Below are positions 951-58,640 of a stretch of 64,000 nt of DNA, piece by piece. The position numbers were made by a program, and so were the translations under genes. Each line of letters starts with the position of its first letter. Position 1 is the first letter of the stretch. The notes beneath the pieces were generated by a model. The model saw only the letters and a program-made list of their open reading frames with translations. It ran no database searches and was not told the DNA's origin. This stretch comes from Schmidtea polychroa (Eukaryota): assembly GCA_044892525.1 (NCBI GenBank), contig CM097885.1, positions 8,558,001 to 8,622,000 of the forward strand. Reading direction: 5' to 3'.

Positions 951-3399
951 AAAGTGAAGTTATAAATGCTGATTCAGTAAATTTAACTAGATCTCAAATT
1001 AAAAATATTTTACATTGACTTTCCTGAAATTAAATATAATTTGATTAATTTAATTCATTATTTAAAATTAAATCAGAATTTTGAAAAGAAATTACTTTTA
1101 CTGGAGGTTAAATTATTATTGATAGCAAATCTGAGAAAGAAGAACCAGTTCAAAAAACGCTTCAGATATTATGTTAACTTTGGGATTATTTGATCTTTAT
1201 GAAATGAGTCAGGATGATAAGGAAATAGATCGGCTCTTATTCCTTCCAGCTTTGCCAAATAACACAGTTGAAATAATTTCTCATCTATACTATTTAAACC
1301 TGAAAAGTGCTGTAAAATATTCTACTAATATTACTTACAAAATTATGTTGTCAACTATTTCCGCAATGTTTTACTTTTTCATTCAATCATTGACCTGGGA
1401 ACTTGCAATTCTTTGAAAATCGATGATTTTGAAATTTGGTGTTCTGAACTAGTTGGTAAAATTCCTACAACTTCATATTTTATAATCAGTGGTCAGGAAA
1501 AACTGATGCTGACTGTCGGAATTGATAAATTAAAAACAAAATTTCTCAGGATAGAATAAGTAGAATAAATAATTTTGTACAATTAATTACTAAATCATTT
1601 CCAACCAAAGAAAACAAATTAAGTATTCTTTAATCAATTCAACGAATTCTGCTATGAAGAGGCCGACACTTACACAGTTAAAGCTAAGCGATTATTATAT
1701 TTTATCATTAGAGATAATAAGTAATTAGTAAGCTAACGTGTTAATAAATTCTGCCAATAGGATTTCTTATTGTTTTGAAGCTTAAAGGAAAGGAACAGTT
1801 TGGAAGATCATCCTATCTATTGTATTTAGATGTCTGCAGTAGTTATTAAGATTTGACGATCTGGCAATTAAGTATCATTCTCGGCTTCTACTAGGGCCTT
1901 GCCTATTCTATAACTCCATGATACACCTTATTCATGATTGCTGATGTGTTGATTATTAATATCTACGACTTTTGATGAAAACATATAAAATTATAACCAA
2001 AACAATGAATAAGATTTTAAGCTGCACTCGTTGCCCTTCCACCTGCCTACTCCTAGATAAAAATTCCATATAAAAGTAAAATATATCAATTATACTACTA
2101 AGGTTCAGAAATTCATTAAATGATACTATATAACCTATACATATCGAGAAATAATAAAATCCAAATCATGTTTACAAGATTTTAATAATATTACAAATAT
2201 TTACATATAATTCTAGGATAAATAAATTACTATAAACAAAAATTATAGCAATTACACCACTAAAATGCCATAAATTCGTTAAATATATTTAAATCATACT
2301 ATATAACATCGTCGTAACGAGAAAGATCAATTTTATAAAGTATATATTTTGATGGGCAACTTGCATTGATTAGACATCCAGATAGTCGGAATCTGGTTCT
2401 AGAACCTTGCATAGGCGTAATTCCATTGTGCTGTAACCATTTTCTATTGTCGCTTTAGTTTATTTTCCCGCTTCTTTAGAACTTCTGGCTATAAACTCAC
2501 TGCTTAAGCTTTATCATTGTCTAAGGCACTTGTTAATATGACGGTAATGGATTCCGTCTACGTGATAAATATCATGCTTCTGGTTGTTATTTATAGCCAT
2601 CGTAGTGACAGGTAGGCAGTCGTACTCTTTGGCTCTGGGTTTCCAAAGTCTACCTCTATCGTCTACCTCATTGGTTCGAATCCATTCTCGTCAACCGACA
2701 CAGGTTTCTTTATTATATTTTCCTTGGAGATTTTTAACATCTTTCGTGGACTACGGGTTCCAACTTCACCTGAATTACTTCTTGCAGTTCCTTGACCGGA
2801 GGTTAGAAGGCAACTTCCATGATCTCGTCGTCTGGCTCGTTAAATATTTTCTTTGGTCTAATCTTAATTTCTTCCTCATTTTTGGATGGTGCTTTCAATG
2901 GCTCTTCAGATCGTTTGGCAACCTTCTTCAATTTAAATTTGAATTTATCTCTTTTTGCCGGTAACATTTTCTTTAATATCTTTTTAACCTTGGTTTTAAT
3001 ATTTTTTTAGTTCTTAGTTTTCTTTGACTGTCGCAACTTTTGTCCCTTCCGTCGGCTGGTAGCCAGCGCTGGTAGGTGGTTTGGATGATTTCGCTGTTTC
3101 TGCTTCACTCACGCATGTTTTGTATTTATCTTCTTCATCTATCGATATTGTTGGAGGTGGTGGTAGATCTTCTGGTGACTTCCCTCTTCTCTTTGCCTGT
3201 GGTTGCTCTGATGTTGTTGGATGTTCGGGTAATCTGTTCCACTTTAGCCGCTGTAGTTGCCGGAATGAACTCCTTCTGAGGTACAGTAATATGATCTAAC
3301 CTTTATACTGTTGTAACCTTTTCGGCTTTGTGAATAGATGATCATCTGTGATGGCAGTATGCCAAATTTATTTACCACAACCCGCATTCCTCTAAACCG

Positions 3400-3830
3400 A
3401 TAAGCCAAAATTTGTCTCTACACACCATTGGTGGGCAAGAGAGACTGCCAATTCCTTGGCAATATAGTATTCATTTGAATTGTTCCTGAATGCTGACATG
3501 AGTTCAAACATAATTTTAAGCAAAGTTGAAACACTCATTAAGTCAATTTTATCAGCCTGGAGCAATATTTGATATAATATTCACACTTTGAAAAATATTT
3601 GTGAGCACAACCAGAAGATAAACAAATTCAATTATATCTTTTGTTTTCTCGATCAGATTTATATTTATCAATGCTCTCAATATATCTGCTATGCACTCTT
3701 CCCGGATGACAATCTTGTTAGGCACAGTGCCTTGAGTTTGATATTTGATTTAGTTGTAAACAATGACAGAATGTTCCAACGTTTGATACCTAACCAATAA
3801 ATCCGTATAACGTATAAATCCGCTGAATAA
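3400..3830 (-). pseudogene. Degenerate hAT (Tip100/ZMYM1-like) transposase fragment
   Basis: Manual translation of the minus strand gives IKRWNILSLFTTKSNIKLKALCLTRLSS (cf. the KRW...LKxLCxTRWSS motif) and LQADKIDLMSVSTLLK...AKELAVSLAHQWCVETNF, interrupted by frameshifts and stops. Confidence 0.6.
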
Positions 3831-6111
3831 CATCAAAGAATTGTGATAGTTCGTGTACTTGAGAAACTGCATCATTCGGAACCAAAATTAGTAGAAATTA
3901 TCTTTATTACTTCAATTTGCGCTGTTGGGCTTAAATATTTGGTTGGTTCCACCAGGTCGTTTAATAAGTTCTATCAACACTCGGTCAAGTATTTTATTAG
4001 GAAAAAAGGAGGAATCTAAAGGGAAATACATTTGGAAATACAACGTTGAAAAAAGTAACAGGTTGCAGTGCTTTTGTTTTATTACTGTTTACTAATATTT
4101 GAACATTTATAAAATCAATTTGAAGCGTGCACTTTTAAACATTTTAATGAGTTTTTAATTTAATTAATTTAAAACACCGTATAACAGGCATTTACCAAAT
4201 AAACAATTGACTTCATGTTACGCACAAAACAGGATGTACAGTAAGAACATATTCATAATATATTATGAAGAACAGCTAAACAACAATCGAATTTCGTTTG
4301 TAATGTCAATAATGTTAATTTCGTAACTAGAAATTTATTGCATCTCATCACGTCCTTCTGACTGACTGCCCGTGCTAAACTTGTCATAATTTTTGGATTT
4401 TTATGGTCGGTCGGGCCCCACAGCACGGCTATATCAGCTACCACAGTAGTTGCGCCACTCATTCCAGATTGATGTTAATGCCGCTGTCTCAAAATATCAT
4501 TCGTCTATATTCACGATCAATATCTAACTAACTCTCTTCTAGTCTAAACTCTTTCTTGGCATATATTTTCTGCGTCTCAGTGAACAATTCCTGGGTTTCA
4601 TAGTGTCATACGATTCTATCTCAACTCACTCTGAAATTCAAAACTAAATTTTAGTTTCATTTTTATATCATTAAAAAACAAAATTCGGAATTTTTGGTCA
4701 TGATATGAGTTCGTTTCGTAACCTAAATGTTTCACTTCTCTAAATGTCTATGACCTGCTCAAGTGAAAATTATTAATTTTTATGAATTCAAGAAGTAAAA
4801 TGTAAAAATTAAAGAATTTTGCATATCGATTTACCAAACATAAATATAAAATCCATAAATAACAGTATAACCTTACTGTTGTATGCGCATGAATGAATCT
4901 CGTTTTTTTTCAATTGATCTCTTAGATTCTGGTGGTTATTAATTATGGTTTGATGGATTGTTTACTTAACTTATAAATGACATTTGGGCACATTTCATCT
5001 CCTTCCGCTCCTAGACGTAGCCATTTTGTAGTCAAAATCTTTTTAAAAATTTGCATTTTCATATTAAAAAATATTTTCAATAACATTTAAATTTCAATAA
5101 CAATATTGATTTAAATAATTTTCTTAGATTTTAAAAAATATTAATTTTATTTTTTTACAAAGTTTGGAAATTAAGTTACAAATAAATTCGAAAAACACTG
5201 AAAAATTAACATTAAAAAACCAATATTTATAAAATATTTGTTTATCTATAAAAACATTTAAATATTGAAATTTCAAAAGTAAGAGGAAATAATTATTATT
5301 TATAATTATGATTTATGAATGTTGAAAAACTTTGAAATATTTTAATAATTGATTTATTTTCACAATTATTGAAACATTCGAGTCTGACAAAATATTTCGA
5401 TTTTTAACATTTTCACATATTAAGTTTATTGATTTATTTATTTTACTCTATTCTAACTTTTGGATCATTGAAATATCCTTATCCAATTGTGGATCATTCC
5501 CTTTATATTTATAACCATAACGAGATCATTAGATCAAAGGCTAAAACCCCACAATTCCTGAAATACATTAATAACCGGTTTAGCGTTACAGAGTAAAATT
5601 TTATTCAAATCTTTTTCTTTAAAAATTGAATGAAATTTTTTTGTTATTTTGTTAAAAGGTATTTGAATTAACAATATTGATTTTTTGTTAAATTTCTATT
5701 TTTGCTCTGATGATTTTGAATTTCTTTCTAATCTGTTCAAATAAATTCTAATTTTAGATAAAATTCTTTAAATTAATATTTTTAAATATTAATTTTTATA
5801 TTTTGACCTATTTTTAATTTTGATTTTCTGTTATTTAAATTTCCATCAAAATTTTACTTTTTGTTATCAAATTTTAATTTAAATAATTTTGTAAGATTTA
5901 AAATAAATAAAAAAACAATGAAAATTAACATTAATAAAATTTCGAATTACGCTAAAGCTAAAATACAATATTTATAAATTGTTTGTTTATCTACATTAAA
6001 ATACAAATTATAAATATTGAAATTGTAAACGTCAGAGGAAATAATTAATATAATAAGTATGATTTGTGAAAATTGTTGATAATGTTGAAAATTTTGTTAA
6101 TTTTAGATAAA

Positions 6112-7566
6112 ATGTTTTCAAGCATATGGGAAATGATGAAGAGAAATAAATTTGAATTTGATAATGAAATCAGCAATGAATTGATGTGCAGAATTTGCAA
6201 ATGTTTAATGATAAAATCTTGCCAAGCTCCTTGCGGGTGTCACTTTTGTTCTGATTGCATTGAGCATTATTTGGAAGGAAAAGATAAATTCTGTCCAGGA
6301 GCAGCAAAATATTGTGAAGTTCTAACGATTCTTTTCACTAAAGATGTTTCTGTGGATCATTCAGTGAATTTAAAAATATCTGAAGTTATTGTAAAATGTC
6401 CAATGCAAAATTGTGAATTCAAAACCGAGTTGTGCATGATGGAGAGCCACATGAGAACATGCAACAAGCAGCCAATCAGATGTCCATTCAATAGAATTGG
6501 ATGTGAAATGAATGAGGTGGTAAAGGACGAAATGAAAGCCCATCTCAATGAAAACAATGAAGGCCACAGCAAATTATTGATTGATCAGACAAGTAATTTA
6601 TGCAATGAGATGCAAGCAATGAGAGATCAGAATATGAAATTGCGTAACGAAATTATCGAATTGAAAGGAGAAATGACGCAATTCAAACAACAATTTGATA
6701 AAATCAATGTAAATTTTATTTGTAATTGATTTAATTGTTATTTGTGATTGTAGGTGAAATTGCGCAATATTGAAAGGAAAGAGGTGGAGAACAGAGCAGA
6801 AATAGAAGAATTGAATGAGGAAATGGTGGCAGTGAAGAATGAGAATCGCTCATTGAGAATGGAGATTGAGACAAATATTGGATCGATCAATCAAGTTTGA
6901 TTATTGATTTGATTTATTATTGAATTTTTATTGATGCAAAGCAGGTCAGACAGCAAATTGAGGTGATTGAATCAAAATGTCAACAGCGGCTGCAACGGGA
7001 GAATGAAAAGGTGATTTATTGTTTTTTTTGAAATATTTGAATTTGAAATTCAGTTGCAGCTTGAAATGGCGAATGATGGCGCCAATGAAAATCGGCCGAT
7101 AAAAAGAAAAATAGCAAATGAAAAATATATAAATTATGGATTTTTGGAATGGCAAATCGATGAATTTTCACAACAAAAGAGAATAGAATGGATTTTCAGC
7201 GAGGCATTTTATTCCGGGCCAATCGGTTACAAAATGTGCTTGTGGGTGAGCATTGGGAGTTTTTATGTTTGGGTTGGTTTCTGTGTGATGCGTGGGGCAA
7301 ATGATGAGCAATTGGATTGGCCGTTCAATCAATCGGTGACAATCGATGTGATCGATCCAGCAAATGGCAGCATTTATATGAGCAAGTCAATGAAATATTC
7401 AGATCGCCCTGATGATGACAGATGGAAGAAACCGTCAAAGGACAGAAATATTCCAATTTTGATTTATGATGATGATGATCGCTCATACTATCCTTATCCT
7501 GATGGCTCAATCTATGAATTAGCAGCCAAAAATGATAAATTGCTGCTCAGGTGCAGAATTGAATAA
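6112..7566 (+). CDS. TRAF-family protein (RING, TRAF zinc finger, coiled coil, MATH domain); exons 6112-6708, 6754-6894, 6945-7010, 7054-7566
   Basis: RING CRIC..CGCHFCSDC..CP, zinc finger CP..CEF..HMRTC..CPF..GC, and MATH motifs FSEAFYSGPIGYKMCL and MRGANDEQLDWPF. Three phase-0 GT-AG introns (45, 50, 43 nt) keep the frame open. Confidence 0.9.
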
Positions 7567-9330: not shown

Positions 9331-10589
9331 AAAGTCATTTTATTATTATTATTACTATTTTTATTAATATTACTATTATTACTATTACTATTATTATTAT
9401 TATCATTATTATTATTATTATTATTATTGTTGATTATTGTAAATTAAAATAAAATTTAAATAAAATTTAGGCTAATAATTCAAATAGAAAGTAAACGAAG
9501 AAAAAAGACAAATAAAAGCGGGATCATGCACGGAATCAATAGTTAAGGAAAGTGTGATGGAAGCAGTATTAGAAAAGGCAAAAGCAATTACGAAAGGCAA
9601 GAATCCGGAAATCCGAGAAAAATCAATAAATGGTAAAATCATCGAAATTGAATGGGGAAAATGGGACAGGTATAGATTAGCTAATAGTCAACAAGATGAT
9701 GATTAAGGATTTATCAGAAAATGGTTAGGAAGGGTCGAAAAGCATTCAGTAGGTAGTTAGGAGCTTACGGCAGCAATAGGGGGGGGGGGTAAAAATGTTG
9801 CAAACTTTGGATTGCATAACTTTTTCCGTAGACATTTTTTGATTACATAATTGTTGCCACATGCTCCAATGATTTTTTTTCTGGGATTTTAAATACAAAA
9901 AATTTTTTTTTCAATAAACAAGCCAAGGATAAGTATTATTTGATTGGGTCTCCTTGATCCTGAGATTTTCAATAGAAAAAGGTAGTCTTCAATAAAAAAG
10001 CATGGATTTTTCAGACTATAGTGAGGGGATCTCCTTGGTCCTGAGAATTTCAATAGAAAAGGTGGTTTACATTAAAAACGCATAGTAAATTTTTAAAATA
10101 AAGCAAATTATGGGTCTAAAAATTGAATTACAGTAAAAAGGTTCAGATTTTTTTGAATTAAAGTAAATTATGGTCTAAATAAGTAAATTATGGGCTAAGA
10201 TTTTTGAATTAAAGTAATGAATGGGCTCAAATAACTAAATTAAGGTTCAAATTTTTAAATTAAAGTAAATAATGGTTCTAAAAAATTAAAATAAAGTAAA
10301 TTAAGGTCCTAAAAAATTAAAATAAAGTAATGAATGGGCACAAATAACTAAATTAAGGATCTAAAAAGTTAAATTAATTAAGTTAAAAAAATTAAGTTAA
10401 TTAAGGTCCAAATTTTAAAATTAAGTAATCAATGGTAAAAATTAAAGTTAAATAAGTAAATTAAAGTAAGATTTTTAAATTTATTAACAAAAAGTTGAAA
10501 TAATAGAAGGTGTTTGAGAATTGAAATTTTTTAATGAAAATTTTTAATGGAAATTTTTATGAAATATTTTTCATTGGTTATTTTTAATG

Positions 10590-10671
<82 letters not shown>

Positions 10672-10850
10672 ATATCAACCAAATACTATACAACACATAA
10701 AAAATTAACTAAACACATAAAAATAACTAAACACATAACAAAACATATAAACATTAACTAAACACATAAAAATGAATTAGACACATAAGAAACATAAAAA
10801 ATTACCAAACAAATAACAAATGCATAGATATAAACTTTTATTTAATAAAA

Positions 10851-13800
10851 TTAGTCCTCATCAGACAAAATAACGTCATCGATATCGATATCATCTTCTC
10901 CAAAATCTTCTCCAATATCTTCATTAAATTCTTCCTCATCTTCTCCAACATTTTCTCCAATATTTAATTCACTTAATCTTACATGCCCATATGCTAAACT
11001 AGTATTTTTCCCCACCCAAACCCTTTTGTCATCTGCGTTAGTGCTATTTTTGTGTTTTTAATTGTAAAAATTTGATGATTTTTGCTTGTTATATTAGTCT
11101 GAGGAACCGAAAAAATCTGGTTAGTGTTATAACAATCCAGGTATGACTGATGTTTTATGTCTCTACCTTTCAACGTTACACCTTTAGCCTTTTTTGTTTC
11201 CTCATCACCCAACAAGCTATAACATTTAGGTCTAAGAAAAACCCATTCCTTATATTTAAGACCTTTATTCTCGTCTTTGAACTTTCCAATGACAGAATCA
11301 AGGTTCTTACTATATAAGGAATGACAACTATTGTAATTGGAAGTATCTAATAAATTATCTCGAATCATTGCAGGTAAAAGAACCTCAAGTTTACAGTTAA
11401 TGACTTCGAGGAAAAAAGAATCTGTATCACCTGCAACGATATTAATTTTACAATTAAACTCATTGCGAAATGATTCCAGATCCTTATATTGCAATTCATA
11501 CATTCTTAGTTTAGATAGATCAAGTACAGATTGACCAATGTAACTTGGTCTATCTAAACATATAGAATCTGAATTCAATAATGCCGCGATTAAATTATCG
11601 TCTATTTTAATAGATTTTTTAAAAGTCGGCTTTGAAGAATATTTAACTAATTTACCGGCAGTTGTACAAACACGAAGATTCATTCTTCTCTTTAAATTTT
11701 CAACTGTTTTGCCGTATAAACTGTTATTTAACAATTTATAATAATTTTTATCTAAGTTATTTATGCTTTTTGACCTTAATTCTGTATTTGTATTTATATA
11801 TTTTTTAAAAATTGGAGATTGCTTAAATCTTACACCCCTATTTACACGTGTTACTTTAACACCAAGTTCCAAATATAATTTTAATAATCTCCAATGAATC
11901 ACATAATTAGATTTTGGAAGATGAGTTAATAATAATTTTTCAACCTTAGACCCAGCAGGTTTCATTTTTTCAGCAGCTACAGGGAAATCATTCAACTTAT
12001 CATGAAGCTCAGAAGGAATTACAAGATCAACTTCAAGAGTGTATCCATAAGACAAAGATTCAAGATTTAAATTCCTACATTCATCCATTATTAAATCAAA
12101 TCCATCAAGAACCCAACTAAATTCGCCACAAGGTAATGATTGACTTAAAGCCCAACCATAAAGATTATTAATATCTATATAAAGTAACTCGGTGTTCTCA
12201 TTGGTTTTTACGTAATGCTTATTCACAAAAGTAAGACCGCCTCTTATTCGACCCTCATAAAAGCTAAACATTTCGTTTTCAGTTATGAGCTCAATTGGTT
12301 CATTTAAAGACATTAATGCAGAAGACCAAGACATACCTGGAATTCCGAAATAATTCAATAGTTCCAATCTATTGTGAGCAATAGATTTCAACCGAAACTG
12401 ATGAAAGAAATCAGCCAAAAGAAAACAATCAAGTTTCAAGTAGATCATCATATAATCTAATAAAGTTACGCAATTAGTTTCTACCCAAATCTCCTGAGCT
12501 TTTTCATACTCAAGCTCAGTGACACCTTCCCAGATTGGTGGTAATTCATAAGTAGTTTGGAGAATATCTAAAGATGTAGCGAAATTATAAGGGAAGATTC
12601 CTTTTTCAGAAACTATAGTGCCAGAAAAAACAGAATTAGTAAAAGGCAAAGAATTCAAAGTTTTGACTGCTTTAGCTAAAGAATCATTGACAAATTGATA
12701 AGAATCAATGAATCTTAAGCTAATTTTGCCTAAATGAGCAATCAAAGAAATAAATTTTTCAGTCGTTATTGGGATGCAACCTAAAGTCCAATTTTTAAAT
12801 TTATTTAATCCATATTTAAGTATATGGTGCATATCGTATCCCTTCAAGTTGTGAAATACGATAAGCAAAATTTTTTTTATTTTCCTATTTATGTTACATG
12901 TGCTACAAGCTGCACCCAAGTATTTCCCCGTAAAATGATCGTGATCTCTAACAGGATCGACGATAGATTTCATACAAAGATAACAAACAGATGCACTAAC
13001 AAATTGACGTTGTTCAATTTTCGTTAATTTAATCATTGGTTTCCTACCCATTTTATAATAAAAAAGGAAGAACCTTATTTAATGCTATATCCTCTATAGC
13101 ACTTAAAAAACTCTCGACGCAATCTAAACCTATGAACTGTTGATATGATTTAGATCCGTCAAAGTTATTTACAAGTAAAAGACCAGCAGATATTGGCATG
13201 TGTCGTTGGAAATGAACATTATCAAAAGGTAAAATAGCCTCAAAATCGGCATAAACTACAAAAGGAGGAGTAACTGTTTTCAACCAGTGAGTAAACTGCA
13301 ATAATTTATTTTGAGGGAAAGTGTAAAGAGTTGTTCCTAATTGATTACGTTTACATAATATTTCATGTTTTTCCAGTGCGTGTTTATACCTAAACCCATT
13401 CAAACACCGATGGCACCATAATGATTGTATGCGTGTAGGATAAGTAGTGTTGATACCACAATTCAGTAACCTATTTAAATTACTTATAGCAACGTAATGG
13501 AAATTGTTTCCTTTATTCAATGGTAGTAAATTAATTACAGTTCCATTTAAAACTTTGGAACGATGTATAATGTCTAAATGTGGATGTTTTAATACATAAT
13601 TATCAGTTAATTGTTTGCTATTATCATATGAAAAAACATTAATTATTAAACCCGGATTTTTAGATTCAAATTTCTTAATGTCTTTTAATTTCATAGGTAA
13701 TTCTAACGGGTCGTATACTAAGTCAGATAAATTATAACTCGATGTCCTATTTCTAGCATAACTACTAACTTCATCATATTTTAAAATAGCTAAAATGCTA

Positions 13801-14703
13801 TATAAAAAACATGAATCATCAGTGTTTTTTATATTAATTAAACAATATTTATTTTTTAGATAAGTAGGTCTTTCAATGAAACTCCTACCACTTAATCTAC
13901 TTAACCTACTTATTTTTGTTATGGTGAAGTGGATTTCTGTTATATTTTTTATAATCCAACTACTTCCTAACTCGGTAATATTAATAATTTTCTCATTTAG
14001 TTCCTTAATGCCTTCATCAAAAAATGATGCAGTTAAAGGCTTTGCATAATTTGAGATATTATTAACCTTTATTTCCCCGTCTTTTTCAAATTCGATTGTT
14101 ATTCCGAATTGAATTTTGACGGAGTCTAATTCGTTAATAATATCTCGAAATTTTATAATTAATTGTTCAGGAAATATTATTTCCTTTATATTTAAGTCGC
14201 TAGTATTTAAACTTAATATTTGATGGGTACCCCTTAGATCTTTTAGTATTATGGGAACATTACCCCCTATTTGTATTATATTTAATCCATCCCAAGAATC
14301 AAAGGAAGTGAATAATCCATCATTGGATTCAACAACCAATCCGACCTGGGATTCAACAAAAGGCAATCCGACCTGGGATTCAACAACCAATCCATCATTG
14401 GATTCAACAAAAGGCAATCCAACCTGGGATTCAACAAAAGACAATCCGACCTGGGATTCAACAAAAGACAATCCGACCTGGGATTCAACAAAAGACAATC
14501 CATCCTGGGATTCAACCTCTAATCCGACCTGGGATTCAAAAGAAGAAGTATCTAATTTAATTTTTTTATTAGTAATATTTTTTTCTATAGTCAAAGGTCG
14601 TTTAAAAACAACATCTTTTTTAAAATTAAACATATCTAAATGATTTTTATGTTTATTATAAAAAACGCTATATGTTACAGGGTCACTAGTCTTACATACG
14701 GGA
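10851..14703 (-). pseudogene. Protein-primed family B DNA polymerase (pPolB), frameshifted, 5'-truncated at 14703
   Basis: Motifs YADFE (ExoI), HNLKGYD (ExoII), YIDINNLYG, KLLNNSLYGK, AGDTDS, and an endonuclease VII-like DHDH..G..C..CN insert. Frameshifts near 13060 and 11035. Confidence 0.92.
14310..14540 (-). repeat. Coding minisatellite of 24/27-bp units (FVESQVGLS), 9 units
   Basis: Directly visible. The inverted arm has 7 units at ~15440-15612. Confidence 0.9.
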
Positions 14704-17141
14704 ATTCTTTAATAGAAAACGTTATGAATGTTCGAGAAAAATTTCAGGAATTTGGTAAATTTTAATTTATTTATTAATTAATTTATTAATTAATTTATTA
14801 ATTAATTTAGATAATATTAATGAAGACAATTTAAAATCAAAGATTACAGGAAATTTGAAAAGAAAAAGTAAACATAATTTTTAATTTATTGATTTAATTA
14901 ATTAATAATTTAGGTAATACGAATAAAGAGAAAAATTATGTCAATGTGTCAATAAATCGAAATGAAAATTTACAATGTAAGTATTGATTACTTTTTTATA
15001 ATTTAAAGGAAATTTAATGTAATTTTTTATTTAAGTAAATGTTAATATTTTTAATTTAGTAAATTTTTATTTTTTAGTAAATAAAATTTGTAAAATAATA
15101 ATAATTTGCAAATTTTTGCGTAAACATTTATTAAAATATTTCATTTAAATTATATTTTTTTTTATAGGTATACTTTATCCAAATTATTGTTCATCGAAAG
15201 AACATGATAATAATTGCCATTCTATAATGGAGAATTATTATACGAAAAAATATTATAATAAAACTTATTTTATATGTCCCGTATGTAAGACTAGTGACCC
15301 TGTAACATATAGCGTTTTTTATAATAAACATAAAAATCATTTAGATAGGTTTAATTTTAAAAAAGATGTTGTTTTTAAACGACCTTTGACTATAGAAAAA
15401 AATATTACTAATAAAAAAATTAAATTAGATACTTCTTCTTTTGAATCCCAGGTCGGATTAGAGGTTGAATCCCAGGATGGATTGTCTTTTGTTGAATCCC
15501 AGGTCGGATTGTCTTTTGTTGAATCCCAGGTTGGATTGCCTTTTGTTGAATCCAATGATGGATTGGTTGTTGAATCCCAGGTCGGATTGGTTGTTGAATC
15601 CAATGATGGATTATTCACTTCCTTTGATTCTTGGGATGGATTAAATATAATACAAATAGGGGGTAATGTTCCCATAATACAAAAAGATCTAAGGGGTACC
15701 CATCAAATATTAAGTTTAAATACTAGCGACTTAAATATAAAGGAAATAATATTTCCTGAACAATTAATTATAAAATTACGAGATATTATTAACGAATTAG
15801 GCTCCGTCAAAATTCAATTCGGAATAACAATCGAATTTGAAAAAGACGGGGAAATAAAGGTTAATAATATCTCAAATTATGCAAAGCCTTTAACTGCATC
15901 ATTTTTTGATGAAGGCATTAAGGAACTAAATGAGAAAATTATTAATATTACCGAGTTAGGAAGTAGTTGAATTAAAAAAAATATAACAGAAATCCACTTC
16001 ACCATAACAAAAATAAGTAGGTTAAGTAGATTAAGTGGTAGGAGTTTCATTGAAAGACCTACTTATCTAAAAAATAAATATTGTTTAATTAATATAAACA
16101 ACACTGATGATTCATGTTTTTATATAGCATTTTAGCTATTTTAAAATATGATGAGGTTAGTAGTTATGCTAGAAATAAGACATCGAGTTATAATTTATCT
16201 GACTTAGTATACGACCCGTTAGAATTACCTATGAAATCAAAAGACATTAAGAAATTTGAATCTAAAAATCCGGGTTTAATAATTAATGTTTTTTCATATG
16301 ATAATAGCAAACAATTAACTGATAATTATGTATTAAAACATCCACATTTAGACATTATACATCGTTCCAAAGTTTTAAATGGAACTGTAATTAATTTACT
16401 ACTATTAAATAAAGGAAACAATTTCCATTACGTTGCTATAAGTAATTTAAATAGGTTACTGAATTGTGGTATCAACACTACTTATCCTACACGCATACAA
16501 TCATTATGGTGCCATCGGTGTTTGAATGGGTTTAGGTATAAACACGCACTGGAAAAACATGAAATATTATGTAAACGTAATCAATTAGGAACAACTCTTT
16601 ACACTTTCCCTCAAAATAAATTATTGCAGTTTATTGACTGGTCAAAAACAGTAACTCCTCCTTTTGTAGTTTATGCCGATTTTGAAGCTATTTTACCTTT
16701 TGATAATGTTCATTTCCAACGACACATGCCAATATCTGCTGGTCTTTTACTTGTAAATAACTTTGACGGATCTAAATCATATCAACAGTTCATAGGTTTA
16801 GATTGCGTCGAGAGTTTTTTAAGTGCTATAGAGGATATAACATTAAATAAGGTTCTTCCTTTTTATTATAAAATGGGTAGGAAACCAATGATTAAATTAA
16901 CGAAAATTGAACAACGTCAATTTGTTAGTGCATCTGTTTGTTATCTTTGTATGAAATCTATCGTCGATCCTGTTAGAGATCACGATCATTTTACGGGGAA
17001 ATACTTGGGTGCAGCTTGTAGCACATGTAACATAAATAGGAAAATAAATAAAAAAAGGAATCTTCCCTTATAATTTCGCTACATCTTTAGATATTCTCCA
17101 AACTACTTATGAATTACCACCAATCTGGGAAGGTGTCACTG
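14703..17141 (+). pseudogene. pPolB 5' part (plus arm) with three upstream phase-1 micro-exons
   Basis: Near-identical to the minus arm. Exons ..14754, 14811-14867, 14914-14976 and 15168.. splice in frame. Lesions are a TGA at 15968, frameshifts, and a ~265-bp deletion at ~17055 that removes ExoII. Interrupted at 17141 by the viral insertion. Confidence 0.85.
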
Positions 17142-17323
17142 TGTTTGCGGTGTGCTTCTCTTTATGAACTTGGGAAATGGGGGGGGGGGCGTCGGGGGGC
17201 TCCTATATCTATAGCACGCCATGGCGTGCTTATTAATAAACCATGGTTTATTATGAGATATAGGGGCCCCCGACGCCCCCCCCCATTTCCCAAGTTCATA
17301 AAGAGAAGCACACTGCAAACACA
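17140..17323. repeat. Left terminal Y-shaped hairpin
   Basis: A ~70-bp stem (TGTGTTTGC..CCTATATCT / AGATATAGG..GCAAACACA) encloses two palindromic arms, AGCACGCCATGGCGTGCT and TAATAAACCATGGTTTATTA. Confidence 0.95.
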
Positions 17324-17741
17324 TGACTGCGTGGGAGTTTATAAAACATATATAGTAAAGTACAGGCAGATGCGTTTTCCAAGAATGGCATAGTAATAAA
17401 TGCCTTTACTTTACTATAATATTTTTAATGATGAGTCATAAAACAATGACTGCGTGGGAGTTTATAAAACATATATAGTAAAGTACAGGCAGATGCGTTT
17501 TCCAAGAATGGCATAGTAATAAATGCCTATACTTTACTATAATATTTTTAATGATGAGTCATAAAACACATTAATCAATAATATATAAACACACTAACTC
17601 GTTTATCTATCATTTACAAATGAATAAGAGTTTATAAAACATATATAGTAAAGTACAGGCAGATGCGTTTTCCAAGAATGGCATAGTAATAAATGCCTTT
17701 ACTTTACTATAATATTTTTAATGATGAGTCATAAAACACAA
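17323..17741. repeat. Three copies of a ~120-bp sub-hairpin ITR unit (single inverted copy at ~22855-22978)
   Basis: Near-identical units, each with an 18-bp inverted repeat, a GGCAT-N8-ATGCC stem-loop and ATGAGTCAT. Confidence 0.93.
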
Positions 17742-17765
17742 AACTAAAATTTATTAAATAACAAA

Positions 17766-20642
17766 TTAAGTGTCCGAAAATCCTGCACGCATACCAAAAT
17801 TAGTCCAGTGTGGTTTCTGAAATCTTGCGACATTATGTTTTACCATGGGAAATATGTCATCTTCTGTTGGTGTTTCGTCAGACCGAATCCAATAATAAAA
17901 CGGTGTACAATAAGGAACAGATGGAGTCATCCATTTAGTTGTTGGCTGCCACCATAAACCGTCTTTACTCTGTAATTCTTCTTTCGAATATATTCGACGA
18001 ATATTAATAGCTGGAATTTTCCCATACATTTCTATAGTATACGATATCTTCCAATTAAATGTGCAAGTTAATTGAATTTGATTTCCACTAGGACCAATTA
18101 TAGTATTAAGTTTAATGAATAGCGTAGGCATGGGATTATGTTCAGATACATCAGGGGCTTCTCAAGTTTTACGATATTCGTCGACAGCTATAGCTTCTTC
18201 TGTAAACCATCTATCAGCAAGTTCTGACTTATCTGCAGGCTTCATTTTTTTATGAACTGTATTGATCGTAGCTGCAAAATCATAAGTCACATTAGAATCA
18301 GCATATTTTCTAGTCCATTTATGATATCGAATTTTAGAAGGATAAGGAGCAACTCGTTTATCAGAAGTTCGAGTACTTCTTCCTAACGCACACATGTAAC
18401 TAAATGGTTTAACTACTTTACAATTAAAATAATCAAAGCGATTCCAAAATACTGGATCTGTATCTTTTAAATTGGGATCTGCCAAATCAGTTCTTTGATG
18501 CCACATTTCTGTAATATACCTGGGATATTTAACTTTCGATGCTGTATAATCATACTCAATACTTTCTCCAGTATTACAATTAATAATTTCAACTTCCGGA
18601 CATGTCTCACATATATATATCCATCCTGCTTTAGGCAACATTTGAGGTGTTAATTTAGACAATTGATTATTGACATTATAACCATTAAGTAAACTGGCTT
18701 CATTCAAAAAATAGTCTTTATAGGCTTTTGCTTTATTTTCGGGCATAGAACAGGGTCCGAATATATTCGCAGTGTCTTTATAAACCAACATTTCAACCTG
18801 ATTTTGTAATCCAGAAAAATTTTGTGGAGATGTTTCCCCAACGACCTGAATATTGAAGATTTCGTAGTGCATTGAGACTGGTTTCCACCATAAATATCTT
18901 TCCATTGCAGACCACAAATCCGGGTTACCGAACATAATATGAGGATAATAATATTCGAGCGGAATATTGTGCCATTCGCTTTGTTTGGTGGTGCCGATGC
19001 AAGAAGCTCCGCAATTGGTAGAGGTGAATTGCAAAGAGGTACCATCAAGGCTGGGTCGGAAGTCTCCTTGAGAATGTCTGAGTATTCCATTACCTCCACC
19101 AGAGCCGGGGACCCCAGAGGATGGGACAACGGGAGGAGCAGTTGTTGTTGACATTTCATGAACAGAAGAAATGATTTCTTTAATAGCTTGTTCAGTATAT
19201 AAGGACCCTCGTGTGCTCTCAACATGCTCTTTATGGCTATCTAGTATATGATTGGTTAATTCTTTATGATGTAATCTATTACGCACATCTACAGATAATT
19301 TCTTTGGCATCCGACGCACATATTCTTTAAGTTGTTCCTGTGTTGCCAATTTCCAGTCCTCGTGTTGATGAGATTGATGATGATTTATTTGATAGTAATA
19401 TTTTAATATCTGTAAATTTATCCTATTTAATTTCCGATCATGTAACATGTGATCATCAGGACCGTTACGATTGTACCATGTTTGGGCTATTTTATTATTT
19501 TTAATACTATGCAAATATGCGGTGAATTTATCATTTACATCTAATTTAGTTAATGATTTAATAGGGAGTTTTCGTGGTAATCGTCTTGTACTAGGATTCC
19601 AATAATGTCTGAATACTGTAGTTGTCCACTTGAATTGATTTTTACCATCAGGTGTCCATGCATACCATGAATTAGGTTCACTAGGATTATATGTTTGATA
19701 TGGATTTATCTTTTTGTGTTCCTCTGGTGTACGTAATATAAGATGTTCGTATAATTCTTTTTGAGGATCTTTTGAATCAAATTTAGGTAACTCCATTAAA
19801 TAATGCGTTTGAAACATGGCAGAAGTTAGAAATTTTGTAATGTTACCTTTGGAAGTTTCAACAAATTGCTCTAACATTCCTGGATTGTCATTAAAAGCTT
19901 TTCTTAATACATAATTATTATCGATTATTTCCTTTTTTATATCATTCTTATTCCACGGTATATTTACATTAGAATAACCATATAATTTTAACGCATTTAC
20001 ATAATATTTGGCTTTAGCTAAAAAGTATTCATATTGCTTACCAAACAAATTAGGGACATCTTTTGGCAATGGATTTTCGAAATTCTGATAACGATGAAAT
20101 TCATCTAAGATATTTTCTTCGGGAGACAAGTATTCGCTATAATCGAAATACCCATGATGTTCGCTTAAAGGCTTAAGATTATTCATTTCTTCTTCTGAAT
20201 ATTTTTCATATATATGTTCTCTTGGGTCCGGTAATACATATTCTTTATCAATAGATTCTTTTAAATGTTCTCCTATTACATCACCAGCTTCTACTAATCC
20301 TAGTATTGCAGCATCACTCATATTACCCCATTTAGATATTACTTTAGTATAAAAATTTTTACTTCTAAATAATGTAATAATTTTAGTAATTTGTGGATTG
20401 ATATATTTTCTATTTAAAAAATTAGTTATATTAGAGGTAAACTTTTGATTTAATGTAAGTGGCTTAAATAATTCACTAGTAAGAGATTTAAATGAATTCG
20501 AATGATATAATGGATTAAAACCAGAAGGTCTTTTCATGTCTGCTTGTAATTTTGTAATAAATTTTGATACATGTGGTTGTATAACCTGACTGTATAATAC
20601 AAATAACCTTTCACCAGCATTTATATAAGGAGAATTTGGCAT
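17766..20642 (-). pseudogene. Parvovirus-type capsid protein (VP) with one in-frame TGA at 18162-18164
   Basis: Gly-rich SSGVPGSGGGNG, then WKPVSMHYEIFNIQV (cf. parvoviral RPKxMxVKIFNIQV) and HNPMPTLFIK (cf. HPPPQIFIK). ORFs 18162..20750 and 17766..18131 are in the same frame, 10 codons apart. AATAAA lies just after the stop (17750-17755, minus). Likely major-VP ATG at 19154; the VP1 start is uncertain (20642, 20537 or later). Confidence 0.85.
18704..19225 (-). CDS. Overlapping alternative-frame ORF (173 aa) across the presumed major-VP start
   Basis: ATG-initiated and open for 173 codons in AT-rich DNA, with a hydrophobic stretch NIIILILCSV. Position resembles AAP/SAT. No sequence family recognised. 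Confidence 0.4.
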   Translation of the reverse strand: MLRAHEGPYILNKLLKKSFLLFMKCQQQLLLPLSHPLGSPALVEVMEYSDILKETSDPALMVPLCNSPLPIAELLASAPPNKANGTIFRSNIIILILCSVTRICGLQWKDIYGGNQSQCTTKSSIFRSLGKHLHKIFLDYKIRLKCWFIKTLRIYSDPVLCPKIKQKPIKTIF

Positions 20643-20644
20643 AA

Positions 20645-21944
20645 AATTTTTATAAGCGATCTCATAAACAACGATTATCCCGCGTACATAAAGTCTATAG
20701 CGACAGTGAAGAGCGGGGAAGCAGTGTATCTTCCGTATTGTCTGGCACATCTGTGTCCGATCTGCGAACTCCTACAAAGACTAGTTCGGTATCTAAAATC
20801 AAGCGATCTTCTAAGCACGTTTCCCGTAAACATAAGGCAAGGAGACACAATGATTCTGAGCATTGTGATATACCAGCTGTCAAAGCTGTTGATCAGTTGG
20901 TTTCAGATAATAAAACTCAAAATAATCATCAGGAACGATCAAGAAGATTTAACTCCTTCAAGTTCCAAGTATCTGTTACAAAATATCGATCTCTGGAGCC
21001 GGAACTTAAAAAACTCATGGAGGACAAGTCCTTTACAAGATTCGTTATCGGTCAAGAAGAGGAAGGTGATAATGGATATCACCATATGTAAATGTATTGG
21101 GAGGTATTATTATATTTATTCAATTTAGCTATTAATGGAATAAATATGATAATTACAGATTTACAACAACATGTCTATATATGCCTTTAGGGCAAAAACG
21201 GATATTCCCTTTGTCAGAGGAGTCCCAGGAATCGAACGGCAGTCCGCTATCGACTATGCAACAAAATCTGAGACAAGAGTTGCAGGAGGATTATCTGTAA
21301 ATATTGGGACTCAAAGTAAATACAATTGTGCATCTAATATAGATTATTTCAAACAAGCACTGAATTCTGCCTCGATGAAAGATGGATTAAATATTCTTAT
21401 GCAACACGAAGCTTTTCACTACACAACAAAGAGAAAAACCATAATGGAAACTTTCGTAAATAAATTCGGTCAATCAACTATGCCAAATTTTAATGACAAT
21501 TTTCTAATTGATAAAATAAATTTATTGGATTGGAGAAGCCACGTGTTTGTAGGAGAATTTGGCATAGGTAAAACCAATTTCGCCTTATCACATTTTAAGA
21601 ATCCGGTGCATTGTAAACACCTTCAAATGCTTAACAGAATTTCGGATAATGTTGATAAATGCGACGGAGTAGTGTTCGATGATCTTTATTTCAACAAAAC
21701 TCGAATAGAAGAATTTCTTTCGTTGGTAGATTGTGCATACGAGAATGTCATAAATATCAAATATTCGGTAGCTGTAGTTCCAAAGGGATTGTCCAGAATA
21801 TTTTGTATAAACGATTTGGACTTATTCTATCCAGAATGTATTTCACCAACAATAATGGAAGCTATACATAGAAGAATTAAAATTCATCATTTCCGAGGCA
21901 GAATTTTTAAAGAATACAAATCTGAACAAGTAAAATTTTTATAG
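20645..21944 (+). pseudogene. CRESS-DNA-virus-type Rep (HUH endonuclease + SF3 helicase), intron 21104-21158, one TAA at 21089
   Basis: Motif I-like FKFQV, then VIGQEE..GYHHM*MYWE (motif II HxQ if TAA was CAA), motif III IDYATKSETR, Walker A GEFGIGKT, Walker B VVFDD, motif C IFCIN and Arg finger AIHRRI. A 55-nt phase-0 GT-AG intron joins the frames. No in-frame ATG found; the frame is open from 20645. Confidence 0.85.
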
Positions 21945-22135
21945 TATTATTTATTAAATTAATATTAGACAATGAAACACCCGTATCAGATACAGAACCA
22001 ATGTCCCAGCCAAAATGTCGATTCCTCAGTATCCAGTGCAAATCCTGTATGAAATTCATGCGTATTTACTTGGGAGTGTGCAATAATAGTTTTTAGTGTT
22101 TAGTATATAATAATAAATGTTTTAAATAATAAATG

Positions 22136-22804
22136 TTAAAAGAAATTCTTTATTTTATCAAAAATATCATACTTAACATCATTCAATACATTTATATCTT
22201 CAAATACATTTATATGAGTATTAAATTCGTATGGTTTTTCTACAACGATATATAGAGAACGATTTTTAAGAGCTTGTTCATGCTCAGAGGCATATTTCCA
22301 TATAGGATGATTATTGGATATTATACAAGGGCAATTACTTAGTTCAATTTTTGAATCACCTTTACGAAAAACTTTTAGAAAAATATTACCTTCACATAAT
22401 AACTTTAATAAATTAACATTTTTGAAATCGCAATATATTTCTTCACCAATGATAATCTCTTTTCCGACACAGTCATCGAAACAAAATTCACTTTGAGTTT
22501 GTGCACCAGTAAAGAATCCATGTTTAAGTGTCCCACGACAAATTGCAGTAAATAATGTTTTCCCACCGTTACTTACTCCTTCTAATATAATGGTCTTGGT
22601 CTTTCCGGCTTGAGATGATAAGATTGTATATATCCCAAGAAGACGACGAATATATTTTTCATTTTCTTTAGGGATAATATGACGATTCTCAGAAATAATT
22701 TGATTAATTTGTCTATTGTGATCGCTGTTAAAATGGAAATTGTTGTTATTAATAAAAGCTTCCATAAAAGTTGATAATTCATTGTATAGTAATAGCTTAT
22801 TCAT
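22136..22804 (-). CDS. Stand-alone parvoviral NS1-type SF3 helicase (222 aa, no endonuclease domain)
   Basis: GKTKTIILEGVSNGGKT, EFCFDDCVGKEIIIGEE (cf. NFPFNDCVDKMVIWWEE), LKLLCEG..VFRKG and PCIISNN. Intact ORF with TATATAAA ~35 nt upstream of the ATG, next to the right ITR. Confidence 0.9.
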   Translation of the reverse strand: MNKLLLYNELSTFMEAFINNNNFHFNSDHNRQINQIISENRHIIPKENEKYIRRLLGIYTILSSQAGKTKTIILEGVSNGGKTLFTAICRGTLKHGFFTGAQTQSEFCFDDCVGKEIIIGEEIYCDFKNVNLLKLLCEGNIFLKVFRKGDSKIELSNCPCIISNNHPIWKYASEHEQALKNRSLYIVVEKPYEFNTHINVFEDINVLNDVKYDIFDKIKNFF

Positions 22805-22977
22805 TTGTAAATGATAGATAAACGAGTTAGTGTGTTTATATATTATTGATTAATGTGTTTTATGACTCATCATTAAAAATATTATAGTAAAGTAAAGGCA
22901 TTTATTACTATGCCATTCTTGGAAAACGCATCTGCCTGTACTTTACTATATATGTTTTATAAACTCCCACGCAGTCA

Positions 22978-23148
22978 TGTGTTTGCAGTGTGCTTCTCTT
23001 TATGAACTTGGGAAATGGGGGGGGGGGCGTCGGGGGGCCCCTATATCTCATAATAAACCATGGTTTATTAATAAGCACGCCATGGCGTGCTATAGATATA
23101 GGGGCCCCCCGACGCCCCCCCATTTCCCAAGTTCATAAAGAGAAGCAC
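22978..23148. repeat. Right terminal Y-shaped hairpin (inverted copy of the left, outer end truncated by about a dozen nt)
   Basis: Reverse complement of 17140-17323 with only a few substitutions and G/C-run length differences. Confidence 0.95.
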
Positions 23149-24811
23149 TCAGGAGATTTGGGTAGAAACTAATTGCGTAACTTTATTAGATTATATGATG
23201 ATCTACTTGAAACTTGATTGTTTTCTTTTGGCTGATTTCTTTCATCAGTTTCGGTTGAAATCTATTGCTCACAATAGATTGGAACCATTGAATTATTTCG
23301 GAATTCCAGGTATGTCTTGGTCTTCTGCATTAATGTCTTTAAATGAACCAATTGAGCTCATAACTGAAAACGAAATGTTTAGCTTTTATGAGGGTCGAAT
23401 AAGAGGCGGTCTTACTTTTGTGAATAAGCATTACGTAAAAACCAATGAGAACACCGAGTTACTTTATATAGATATTAATAATCTTTATGGTTGGGCTTTA
23501 AGTCAATCATTACCTTGTGGCGAATTTAGTTGGGTTCTTGATGGATTTGATTTAATAATGGATGAATGTAGGAATTTAAATCTTGAATCTTTGTCTTATG
23601 GATACACTCTTGAAGTTGATCTTGTAATTCCTTCTGAGCTTCATGATAAGTTGAATGATTTCCCTGTAGCTGCTGAAAAAATGAAACCTGCTGGGTCTAA
23701 GGTTGAAAAATTATTATTAACTCATCTTCCAAAATCTAATTATGTGATTCATTGGAGATTATTAAAATTATATTTGGAACTTGGTGTTAAAGTAACACGT
23801 GTAAATAGGGGTGTAAGATTTAAGCAATCTCCAATTTTTAAAAAATATATAGATACAAATACAGAATTAAGGTCAAAAAGCATAAATAACTTAGATAAAA
23901 ATTATTATAAATTGTTAAATAACAGTTTATACGGCAAAACAGTTGAAAATTTAAAGAGAAGAATGAATCTTCGTCTTTGTACAACTGCCGGTAAATTAGT
24001 TAAATATTCTTCAAAGCCGACTTTTAAAAAATCTATTAAAATAGACGATAATTTAATCGCGGCATTATTGAATTCAGATTCTATATGTTTAGATAGACCA
24101 AGTTACATTGGTCAATCTGTACTTGATCTATCTAAACTTAGAATGTATGAATTGCAATATAAGGATCTGGAATCATTTCGCAATGAGTTTAATTGTAAAA
24201 TTAATATCGTTGCAGGTGATACAGATTCTTTTTTCCTCGAAGTCATTAACTGTAAACTTGAGGTTCTTTTACCTGCAATGATTCGAGATAATTTATTAGA
24301 TACTTCCAATTACAATAGTTGTCATTCCTTATATAGTAAGAACCTTGATTCTGTCATTGGAAAGTTCAAAGACGAGAATAAAGGTCTTAAATAAAAGGAA
24401 TGGGTTTTTCTTAGACCTAAATGTTATAGCTTGTTGGGTGATGAGGAAACAAGAAAGGCTAAAGGTGTAACATTGAAAGGTAGTGACATAAAACATCAGT
24501 CATACCTGGATTGTTATAACACTAACCAGATTTTTTCGATTCCTCAAACAAAAATAGCAAGCAAAAATCATCAAATTTTTACAATTAAAAACACTAAAAT
24601 AGCACTAACTAACAAAGATGACAAAAGGGTTTGGGTGGGGAAAAATACTAGTTTAGCATATGGGCATGTAAGATTAAGTTATTTAAATGTTGGAGAAATT
24701 GTTGGAGATGAATTTGATGAAGAAGATGTTGGAGAAGATATTGAAGAAGTTGTTGGAGAAGCTGATATTAATGACATTATTTTATCTGATAAAAATTGTT
24801 TTATTAAATAA
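23148..24811 (+). pseudogene. pPolB 3' part (plus arm), nonsense at 24392
   Basis: Resumes the pPolB sequence right after the virus. Motifs YIDINNLYG, KLLNNSLYGK, AGDTDS and DDKR..AYGH. Confidence 0.92.
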
Positions 24812-24970
24812 AATTTTATATCTTTACTTTTGTTCTTTATATGTGTTTGGTAAATTTTTATGTTTGTTATGTGTCTAGTTATTTTTATGTGTTTAGTTAA
24901 TGTTTAAATGTTTTGTTATGTGTCTAGTTATTTTTATGTGTTGTATAGTATTTGGTTGAAATATTATTAC

Positions 24971-25021
<51 letters not shown>

Positions 25022-25950
25022 AATTATTATTATTATTAATCTATAAAAAAAAATAACTTAAAAAAAATTTACTTAAAAAATTATTCCATTAAAATTTTCA
25101 TTTAAAATTATCCTAAAAAAAAATTATTATTTCATTAAAAAATTTCAATTCTCAATTACTGAATATTATTCCAACTTTTTGTTAATAAATTTTAAAATTT
25201 TACTTTAATTTACTTATTATATTACTTATTTAAAAATTATTACATTAATTTACTTATTTAAAAATTTTGACCATTGATTACTTAATTTTTCAATTTGGAT
25301 CTTAATTAACTTTAATTTTATATTTTAGACATTAATTTACTTTAATTTAAATTTTTAGAATCTTACTTTACTTATTTGAGTCTTAATTAACTTTAACTGA
25401 ATAAATTTAGACCTTAATTAACTTTAATTTTAAATTTTAGACCATAATTTGCTTGAATTCAAAAATTACCATGATTTTTTAGTGTAAACCCCCCCCCTTT
25501 TTATTGAAAATCATAGGACCAAGGTGACCCCTCATTATAGTCTAAATAATTCCATGCTTTTTAGTGTAGACCACCTTTTTCTATTGAAATTCTCAGGACC
25601 ATCGAGACCCCCTCACTATAGTCTGAATAATCCATGCTTTTTTAATGATAGCCGGATTTTGTATTGAAATTCTCAGGACCAAGGAGACCCATCCAAATAA
25701 TACTGACTTATCCTTGGCTTTTTGTATTGAAAACAATTTTTCTATTGAAAATCCCAGAAAATAAAATCATTGGAGCGTACGGGAACAATTATGTAATAAA
25801 AAAAATGTCTACGGCAAAAGTTATGCAATCACAAGTTGCAAAATTTTTTACCCCCCCCCCCCTCTATTGTTGCCGGGAGCCCCTAACTACCTACTTATAT
25901 ATATAAATAAGTCTAATAACTTCATTTACAACATTCACAAATATTCATCG

Positions 25951-34105: not shown

Positions 34106-36142
<2,037 letters not shown>

Positions 36143-37769: not shown

Positions 37770-37868
37770 TTCAAAAATTTTATAAATGTGTATTTGTTTA
37801 TATTCAATGATTTAATGAACTCGTGCTCAATTTGTATATAAAGAATAATTTTCATAAATGATTTAATA

Positions 37869-38306
37869 ATGTTAGCAAATATAAATTATCGAGGAAATTT
37901 TGATGTATCGAATATGAGGTTCCCACCAGGGAAACCCCAGCAAATTATCGATAGAAGCGGGAAATATCCGATAATATTTTTCAAGACTGGTAAATGTAGA
38001 ATCATGGGATGTAAGAAACCTTTGGATATTAATAAATTACAATATCGAATAAATAATATTATAATCCAATCAATTACCGTTACTATGGATATGGGACATA
38101 GTATCAATTTATATAACATGTCGAAAAAATGTGATTGTATGTTTGAACCGGAATTGTTTCCGGCACTAAGACTATTAAAATATAACCCTATATGTGTCAA
38201 CGTGTTTGCTAGTGGAAAGGTTGTCATGCTGGGGTTGAGAAATTTGGAGTATAGAGAATTTGTTGACAATGTTCGAAATGAGATAATTTCATTGGTCGAT
38301 TTCTAA
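37869..38306 (+). CDS. TATA-binding-protein-like protein encoded by the Polinton
   Basis: Two TBP repeats: IIFFKTGKCRIMG, and IQSITVT...INL...FEPELFPAL..NP..VNVFASGKVVMLG (cf. YEPELFPGL..IFVSGKVVLTG). Confidence 0.88.
   Translation: MLANINYRGNFDVSNMRFPPGKPQQIIDRSGKYPIIFFKTGKCRIMGCKKPLDINKLQYRINNIIIQSITVTMDMGHSINLYNMSKKCDCMFEPELFPALRLLKYNPICVNVFASGKVVMLGLRNLEYREFVDNVRNEIISLVDF

Positions 38307-54970: not shown

Positions 54971-58640
<3,670 letters not shown>

Follow-up and report, generated by a model that had tools for sequence, protein, structure and literature searches.

The window, by which we mean the whole 64,000-nucleotide stretch of Schmidtea polychroa DNA that was analyzed, contains an element of about 6 kb (17140-23148; about 7 kb with its missing part included) that lies within a Polinton-type pPolB gene. 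The gene continues on both sides of the element, on the left at 16111-17139 (+ strand) and on the right at 23148-24811 (+ strand; Pfam DNA_pol_B_2, E 5.4e-20). The element is a broken, integrated copy of a virus with parvovirus-like hairpin ends. An empty site is present in an inverted sister Polinton copy (12440-12640, - strand), and comparison with it shows that 18 bp were lost upon insertion and that no target duplication was formed. As both host junctions also exhibit short microhomology, these features point to insertion by repair rather than by a transposase. The two Polinton pPolB copies (9748-14703 and 15149-25895) are arranged head to head in a large palindrome, 88-96% alike, and only one of the two is interrupted by the element; a third copy, more distant, is found at 34106-36142. 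An open reading frame of 154 amino acids (465 letters, 37842-38306) adjoins the Polinton genes, and those at 6070-7566 and 56725-57354 we take to be of host type (RING-finger/TRAF-like pieces and a katanin-like AAA ATPase). Introns and frames of host type make an animal host likely.

Both ends of the element form complete and matching Y-shaped hairpins (z -19.6), so that hairpin telomeres, one of the traits of the Parvoviridae, are present. The right hairpin (22978-23148) has two ears, and the left (17140-17323) is its reverse complement, ear order included; the right outer arm is 12 nt shorter than the left. A pattern search for the hairpin ears gave no matches. Both ends in the window have the one ear order, and a contig from the same organism joins 22958 to 23096 on the other strand, as would arise from the other order; a second such contig joint is explicable by the window's own left arm.

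Directly behind the right ITR begins an open frame of 222 amino acids (22136-22804, - strand) that resembles the helicase part of NS1 (Pfam Parvo_NS1, E 9.8e-13; 31% to the helicase of the related locus L047, E 4e-29), leaving no room upstream for an HUH domain. It thus differs from NS1 as the family criterion is worded in the relevant text of PMC13426907, where HUH nuclease and SF3 helicase are united in one protein. The sole HUH protein seen in the element is a CRESS-type Rep (20645-21944, + strand), which possesses the HUH motifs, YxxK and an SF3 helicase. In the window copy, this gene has an in-frame stop (21089-21091) and lacks a start codon upstream of motif I. Its apparent frameshift was rejected as such, and is instead a 55-nt, phase 0 intron (GT..AG, 21104-21158, + strand); a contig from a run that is probably RNA lacks a net 55 nt across it. 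Homologues of the Rep number 931 representatives at E 0.001 or better, and the Viral_Rep profile is found on eight of 16 aligned Rep rows, the window's own piece not being among them. With no nuclease part in the NS1-like frame and no other HUH protein seen in the element, the hairpin ends are probably resolved by the CRESS-type Rep.

The third gene (17766-20771, - strand, with an in-frame stop at 18162-18164) is capsid-like. Its best ESM Atlas match scores 0.95, a value of low recognition power, and parvovirus VP families are found on 45% and 15% of the members of the matching Atlas cluster. A Pfam search of this protein gave no match, and its AlphaFold model, made without an alignment, has a pLDDT of 32. 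Single-protein locus searches with the Rep and the helicase as queries returned nothing, nor did homologue searches with the capsid and the helicase. By eye, intron-like inserts near the Rep nuclease motifs can also be seen in P0005, L001, L039 and L042. A further frame of 173 amino acids (20607-21128) overlaps the start of the Rep gene in another reading frame, as does a similar one in L001 (3252-4049), an arrangement that recalls densovirus NS2.

Other copies of the element in the same organism were judged from contigs of four runs from three studies, aligned at 85% likeness or more; in three of the four runs, contigs span the entire stretch. One contig holds about 0.94 kb more than the window between the capsid and Rep genes (at 20651/20652), and the pieces in the three other runs likewise begin at 20652. 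The window copy has therefore likely lost about 0.94 kb between the starts of these two genes.

The inner part of the right ITR contains a 68-bp unit (22883-22950), composed of an 18-bp inverted repeat (22883-22900/22933-22950; 17 of 18 positions paired, or 22 of 27 if extended) and three TTACTAT boxes (22884-22890, inverted; 22905-22911; 22943-22949). Overlapping the left arm of the inverted repeat is a TATTAC stem-loop, GGCAT-TTATTACT-ATGCC (22897-22914, + strand), with a 5-bp stem, an 8-nt loop, TATTAC at 22903-22908 and a candidate nick at 22906/22907. Exact matches to this 18-mer, GGCATTTATTACTATGCC, occur at 22897-22914 (+) and, on the - strand at the left end, at 17387-17404 in ITR unit 1 (17323-17445), 17510-17527 in tandem unit 2 (17446-17628, which takes in the helicase leader and the first three codons) and 17680-17697 in tandem unit 3 (17628-17740). 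The original prediction had placed the motif at the right end, its inverse at 17387-17404 and repeats of it in two extra left units, all within or overlapping the inverted repeat, and its positions are exact. It was also right that TATTAC is on the outward strand at both ends; this follows from the symmetry of the ITRs, and is therefore one coin toss and not two. Similarly, the motif copies cannot be taken as four observations: they are the ITR and tandem repeats of one unit, and the motif therefore counts once.

The three left copies of the 68-mer agree with the reverse complement of the right copy at 68/68, 67/68 and 68/68 letters, and the left motif copy lies 75 nt past the capsid stop. The three tandem inner-ITR units of the left end (17323-17740) are joined at short microhomologies, and none of their joints is at TT^AC. 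Reading inward from the unit, the palindrome ATGAGTCAT (22870-22862), which we take to be AP-1-like, is followed by TATATAAA (22842-22835) and then by the helicase ATG; these putative promoter words span 22835-22870 on the - strand. The unit as a whole is an assembly of repeated blocks, and one of its three TTACTAT boxes falls at the TATTAC loop. Because TTACTAT occurs three times, the loop is readable as the third of these boxes.

TATTAC is found at 84 places in the window; 13 of these lie in a stem of at least 5 bp, and four of the 13 are the motif copies. In dinucleotide shuffles of the 195-nt inner ITR, TATTAC alone appears in 40%, and within a stem of at least 5 bp in 181 of 5000 (either strand) or 73 of 5000 (+ strand). 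With three G-C pairs also demanded, a threshold set after the motif was known, the number falls to 3/5000. The corresponding figures from shuffles of the whole element are 179/500 and 14/500. These statistics take no account of the repeated-block make-up of the unit, and the TATTAC stem-loop is modestly above chance. The 5-bp stem has a folding energy of -2.5 kcal/mol and, in context, a pair probability of about 0.01; it is outcompeted by the larger hairpin formed by the inverted repeat, which pairs at 0.93-0.99 (z -4.65 for the 18-27 bp fold). In both structures, TATTAC is unpaired or almost so. An Rfam search gave no matches.

Two indels in the loop were found among the other copies; both are variants of integrated, perhaps decayed copies, and their contig depths are not copy numbers. 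The first is an insertion of 1 nt behind 22902 (depth 652/4255 in run X1 and 9.5/9.5 in X7), which keeps TATTAC by position. The second, a deletion of 2 nt at 22904 (812/2867 in X1), removes TATTAC. Both lie 5' of the TTACTAT box, which stays intact by position, with no sign of either indel in X5 or X6. No substitution in the 68-bp unit appears in the 40 substitution rows listed out of 983.

Reps of CRESS viruses nick TATT^AC at the apex of a stem-loop that lies near iterons. Eight of 16 viral loci with related Reps possess such a stem-loop, in which TATTAC is preceded by 4-5 loop bases and carried on a stem of 10-17 bp that folds at -12 to -16 kcal/mol; among metagenome loci with related Reps, one of eight has a TATTAC stem, of 7 bp. 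The canonical nonamer, NANTATTAC, is present in eight of the 16 viral loci and is replaced by ATTTATTAC in the window, where there are also 5 bp in place of a stable stem of about 10 bp or more, and an 8-nt loop with a single base before TATTAC in place of 11-12 nt with 4-5. Two of the caveats of the original prediction, the short stem and the deviating nonamer, agree with these results. What the window shares with the canonical origins (L002, L003, L005, L008, L009, L014-L016) is a TATTAC loop, repeated boxes flanking the small stem as putative iterons, and a CRESS-type Rep; it differs from them in stem, loop and nonamer, and in having two copies within the ITRs of a hairpin-ended genome. The TATTAC loop is not a canonical CRESS origin.

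The relationships of the Reps lead in the same direction. A quick, midpoint-rooted tree with long branches was built on Rep exon 2 only, from 55 rows that include 38 of the 40 best proteins (at least 230 amino acids) and 16 of 24 Rep loci; the canonical-origin loci L003 and L014-L016 are not among them. In this tree, the window Rep belongs to a set of nine rows that also takes in L001 and L039 (SH-aLRT 95), inside a clade of 31 rows. The five circular TATTAC loci included sit in a separate clade of 24 rows (SH-aLRT 98), and the Reps that adjoin canonical origins here thus appear, from this placement, not to be the nearest kin of the window Rep.

The terminal palindrome of AAV and the densoviruses extends as far as the nick. 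In the window, the candidate nick lies 71 nt inside the hairpin base, and to reach its mirror position the outer arms would have to be 71 and 83 nt longer. Trimming of these arms on integration is possible, given the 12-nt difference between the two ends and the microhomology at both junctions. The motif is indeed within the ITR, on the strand that would be extended from its 3'-OH into the hairpin, and no nick motif other than TATTAC was identified near the hairpin base. The base itself (22978), where the left outer end and one tandem junction coincide, was considered as a nick and rejected: both joints have microhomology, and the coincidence is therefore no evidence for one. Compared with the terminal-resolution sites of AAV, the densoviruses and HBoV1 (the last as described in PMC8242256), the window site is alike in lying inside the ITR, on the outward-priming strand and adjoining repeated boxes; it differs in its distance from the hairpin base and in that the putative nickase is a separate CRESS-type Rep and not NS1. 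The proposal that a rolling-circle origin was grafted onto parvoviral telomeres thus survives in part. The hairpin telomeres, the nuclease-free NS1 and a CRESS-type Rep as likely resolvase are supported; a grafted stem-loop as terminal-resolution site is not supported, given its nonamer, stem and loop, its outcompeted fold, its position inside the base and its variation between copies.

Each of the element's three genes has a match in two related loci, L001 and L047 (Rep 30%, helicase 31%, capsid E 3e-11 and 2e-6, respectively), in which the gene order is compatible with capsid, Rep, helicase. It is L047 740-1014 that corresponds to the ends of the element; in the light of L047, the 243-nt repeats of L001 were rejected as an equivalent of the ITRs. 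In L047, GCATATATTAC is found 56 nt past the capsid-like stop, on the capsid-sense strand and without a 5-bp stem. TATTAC alone appears in 44% of shuffles of L047 740-1014, and together with four of six upstream matches in 1.7-2.2% of 20000; local alignment of the 18-mer to the same stretch does no better than chance, its score being reached in 37-44% of 20000 shuffles. The non-coding DNA ahead of the L047 helicase has TACTATAA..ATGAGTCAT in the order and sense of the window, a likeness noticed post hoc, and in this register, which is the opposite one, the TATTAC of L047 is without a counterpart in the window. The capsid-Rep gap of L001 has TATTAC at 3183, also without a 5-bp stem. Neither locus has a terminal hairpin, nor a TATTAC stem-loop of 5 bp or more in the 243-nt repeats or before the helicase.

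The 243-nt repeat is common to L001 (1-243 and 5457-5699) and L047 (1-251 and 1661-1911), with opposite outward sense. L047 opens with an open reading frame for the capsid C-terminus, and at the inner border of its repeat L001 carries a splice-donor-like site; the capsid gene might thus alternate between a whole and a split form through the inversion of one part. By anatomy alone, the two loci resemble the planarian PEVE and PIVE elements, as these are described by Liu et al. 2011 (PMC3198968). Unlike the window element, L001 and L047 have 243-nt repeats without hairpins and, seemingly, an invertible part.

In L039, three 109-nt tandem units follow the Rep gene, each with an 8-bp inverted repeat, and there is no TATTAC in 3091-3565. 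In this region (L039 1995-3482), the Rep gene, which belongs to the window's Rep clade, sits inside a host reverse-transcriptase element. The exact 18-mer is found in 22 viral-contig stretches, none of which (0/22) has a tblastn match to the Rep, the capsid or the helicase.

Parvoviruses that carry an auxiliary CressRep beside NS1, a group represented by Parvo3071, have been described in a preprint (Buck et al., PMC11071296), with at least nine such genomes, all labelled linear; its text devotes one sentence to the group and does not use the word 'hairpin'. As in the element, NS1 of the Parvo3071 group is helicase-only (about 250 amino acids), and the Rep motif GKTxFALAHF is alike by eye. The ends of eight published genomes were inspected by eye in their first 400 nt, at one end each. 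Three of the eight (Parvo3723, Parvo3867 and Parvo3867a) have a terminal palindrome, just inside which the NS1 gene starts, as it does in the element; an outward-facing TATTAC stem-loop was seen in none of the eight. In these three genomes, an outward TATTAC, stemless by eye, sits in the NS1 intron at about 105 nt inside the palindrome, and the inward-facing TATA position is occupied by TATATTAC in Parvo3867 and Parvo3867a and by TATATAAC in Parvo3723. Parvo5161 shows, again by eye, the order inverted repeat, ATGACGTCAT, TATA, ATG, without TATTAC. Words of 9-11 nt that the window has in common, by eye, with Parvo3071 and Parvo3580 were dropped, being expected by chance. Relatives thus offer weak TATTAC echoes, in L047 and in Parvo3723, Parvo3867 and Parvo3867a, and no equivalent of the stem-loop was seen in the nearest of them.

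The reading that we tentatively prefer, at somewhat under even likelihood, is that the 68-bp unit supplies the promoter and the Rep-binding sites of a hairpin origin, and that this origin would be cut by the CRESS-type Rep, with the nick elsewhere than at a grafted stem-loop. The 3' hairpin would prime synthesis, and Rep, perhaps together with the separate helicase, would load on the inverted boxes and melt the duplex. Nicking of the outward-running strand between the boxes and the hairpin base would then allow the hairpin to be copied, and the same stretch, read inward, may drive the helicase gene. Under such a scheme, the TATTAC loop is more likely a third TTACTAT box than a transplanted circovirus origin. 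In its favor, the loop box is spared by both indels, one of which removes TATTAC; inverted-repeat units recur in L039 and Parvo5161; and a helicase-only NS1 is common to L047 and the Parvo3071 group. It is less at ease with the G-C-rich stem around TATTAC, which exceeds chance (3 to 181 per 5000 shuffles), with GCATATATTAC in L047, and with the stemless outward TATTAC of the three palindrome-bearing parvoviruses.

These last observations are accommodated if the CRESS-type Rep nicks TATT^AC itself (22906/22907), with the site presented either by the small stem-loop or by the larger hairpin's loop, and with a true palindrome of about 325 nt that was trimmed on integration. We regard this as possible but doubtful. 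The site is inside the ITR, on the right strand, above chance and almost unpaired in either fold; half of the viral loci with related Reps have TATTAC stem-loops, and the insertion variant keeps TATTAC by position. Against these stand the nonamer, the stem of 5 bp at -2.5 kcal/mol as opposed to 10-17 bp at -12 to -16, the single loop base before TATTAC and the variant that loses it, together with the placement of the circular TATTAC loci in a clade apart from that of the window. Similarly, the outer arms are 71 and 83 nt too short to mirror the site, a shortfall for which the microhomology at both host junctions allows trimming as an explanation. That Rep resolves the hairpins is presumed whether the cut is at TATTAC or between the boxes and the hairpin base.

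A reading of the unit as promoter or enhancer DNA of the helicase gene and nothing else, duplicated with the ITR, with an accidental TATTAC stem and no role in replication, seems unlikely to us. The AP-1-like palindrome, TATATAAA and the helicase ATG do follow one another in inward order, TATTAC alone is frequent in shuffles of this AT-rich, block-repeated sequence, and the viral-contig stretches with the 18-mer have no tblastn match to the element's genes; such a role would leave unaccounted for the fold of the inverted repeat (z -4.65) and the recurrence of inverted-repeat units beside genes of the Rep clade (L039, Parvo5161). Least probable is that the real Rep origin lay in the missing 0.94 kb, as in circoviruses, with replication via a circle and the hairpin ends secondary: the capsid-Rep stretch is absent from the window copy and the repeats of L001/L047 point to a non-hairpin topology in a near relative, but the element has two complete, matching Y hairpins, the TATTAC in the capsid-Rep gap of L001 lacks a 5-bp stem, and Parvo3723, Parvo3867 and Parvo3867a have terminal palindromes.

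Returning to the binding and promoter module as the preferred role of the unit, the element would, by analogy, come closest in function to a hairpin origin of parvoviruses, with an initiator of the CRESS type. Parvovirus Reps are considered descendants of CRESS Reps (PMC11071296), and the element bears on the question of how an enzyme that starts rolling-circle replication took on the resolution of hairpin ends. Because telomeres, a CRESS-type Rep and a nuclease-free NS1 occur together here, the nick can be searched for in the short stretch 22883-22978, whether or not the cut is at TATTAC. The bolder picture, to which we give a rather low likelihood, is of a linear, hairpin-ended animal DNA virus in which a circovirus-type Rep cuts TATT^AC in each ITR and in which nickase and parvoviral helicase are on separate genes; if true, a rolling-circle nick site used as a terminal-resolution site would constitute a living model of the step from CRESS virus to parvovirus.

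No published analysis of such an origin was found in a search that did not extend to the Oomyviridae proposal or to the papers on PEVE and on parvo-like hybrids. That a CRESS Rep can go with linear ends is already known, since the Oomyviridae (order Lineavirales), a ratified family of linear CRESS viruses (PMC12451638; PMC13426907), share with the element a linear ssDNA genome and a CRESS Rep. They are unlike it in that the portions of these two sources consulted mention no NS1-like helicase and propose stramenopile hosts; a terminal nick site of the family was not found in the literature searched. Further background is given in PMC5013282, PMC9896142 and PMC8242256.

The gene set of the CressRep parvoviruses, a CRESS-type Rep with a parvovirus-class NS1 and VP, is present in the element and is already known from the preprint; the new part is the presence of two complete Y telomeres in an integrated copy. 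The published genomes measure 3.5-4.2 kb and show a simple G-C-rich palindrome at the visible end, whereas the element is about 6 kb, integrated, and Y-shaped at both ends. The Rep of Parvo4218 seems, by eye, to be of another type. In addition, one viral contig (L011) carries two related Rep-capsid units in tandem, at 283-1173 and 2076-2963.
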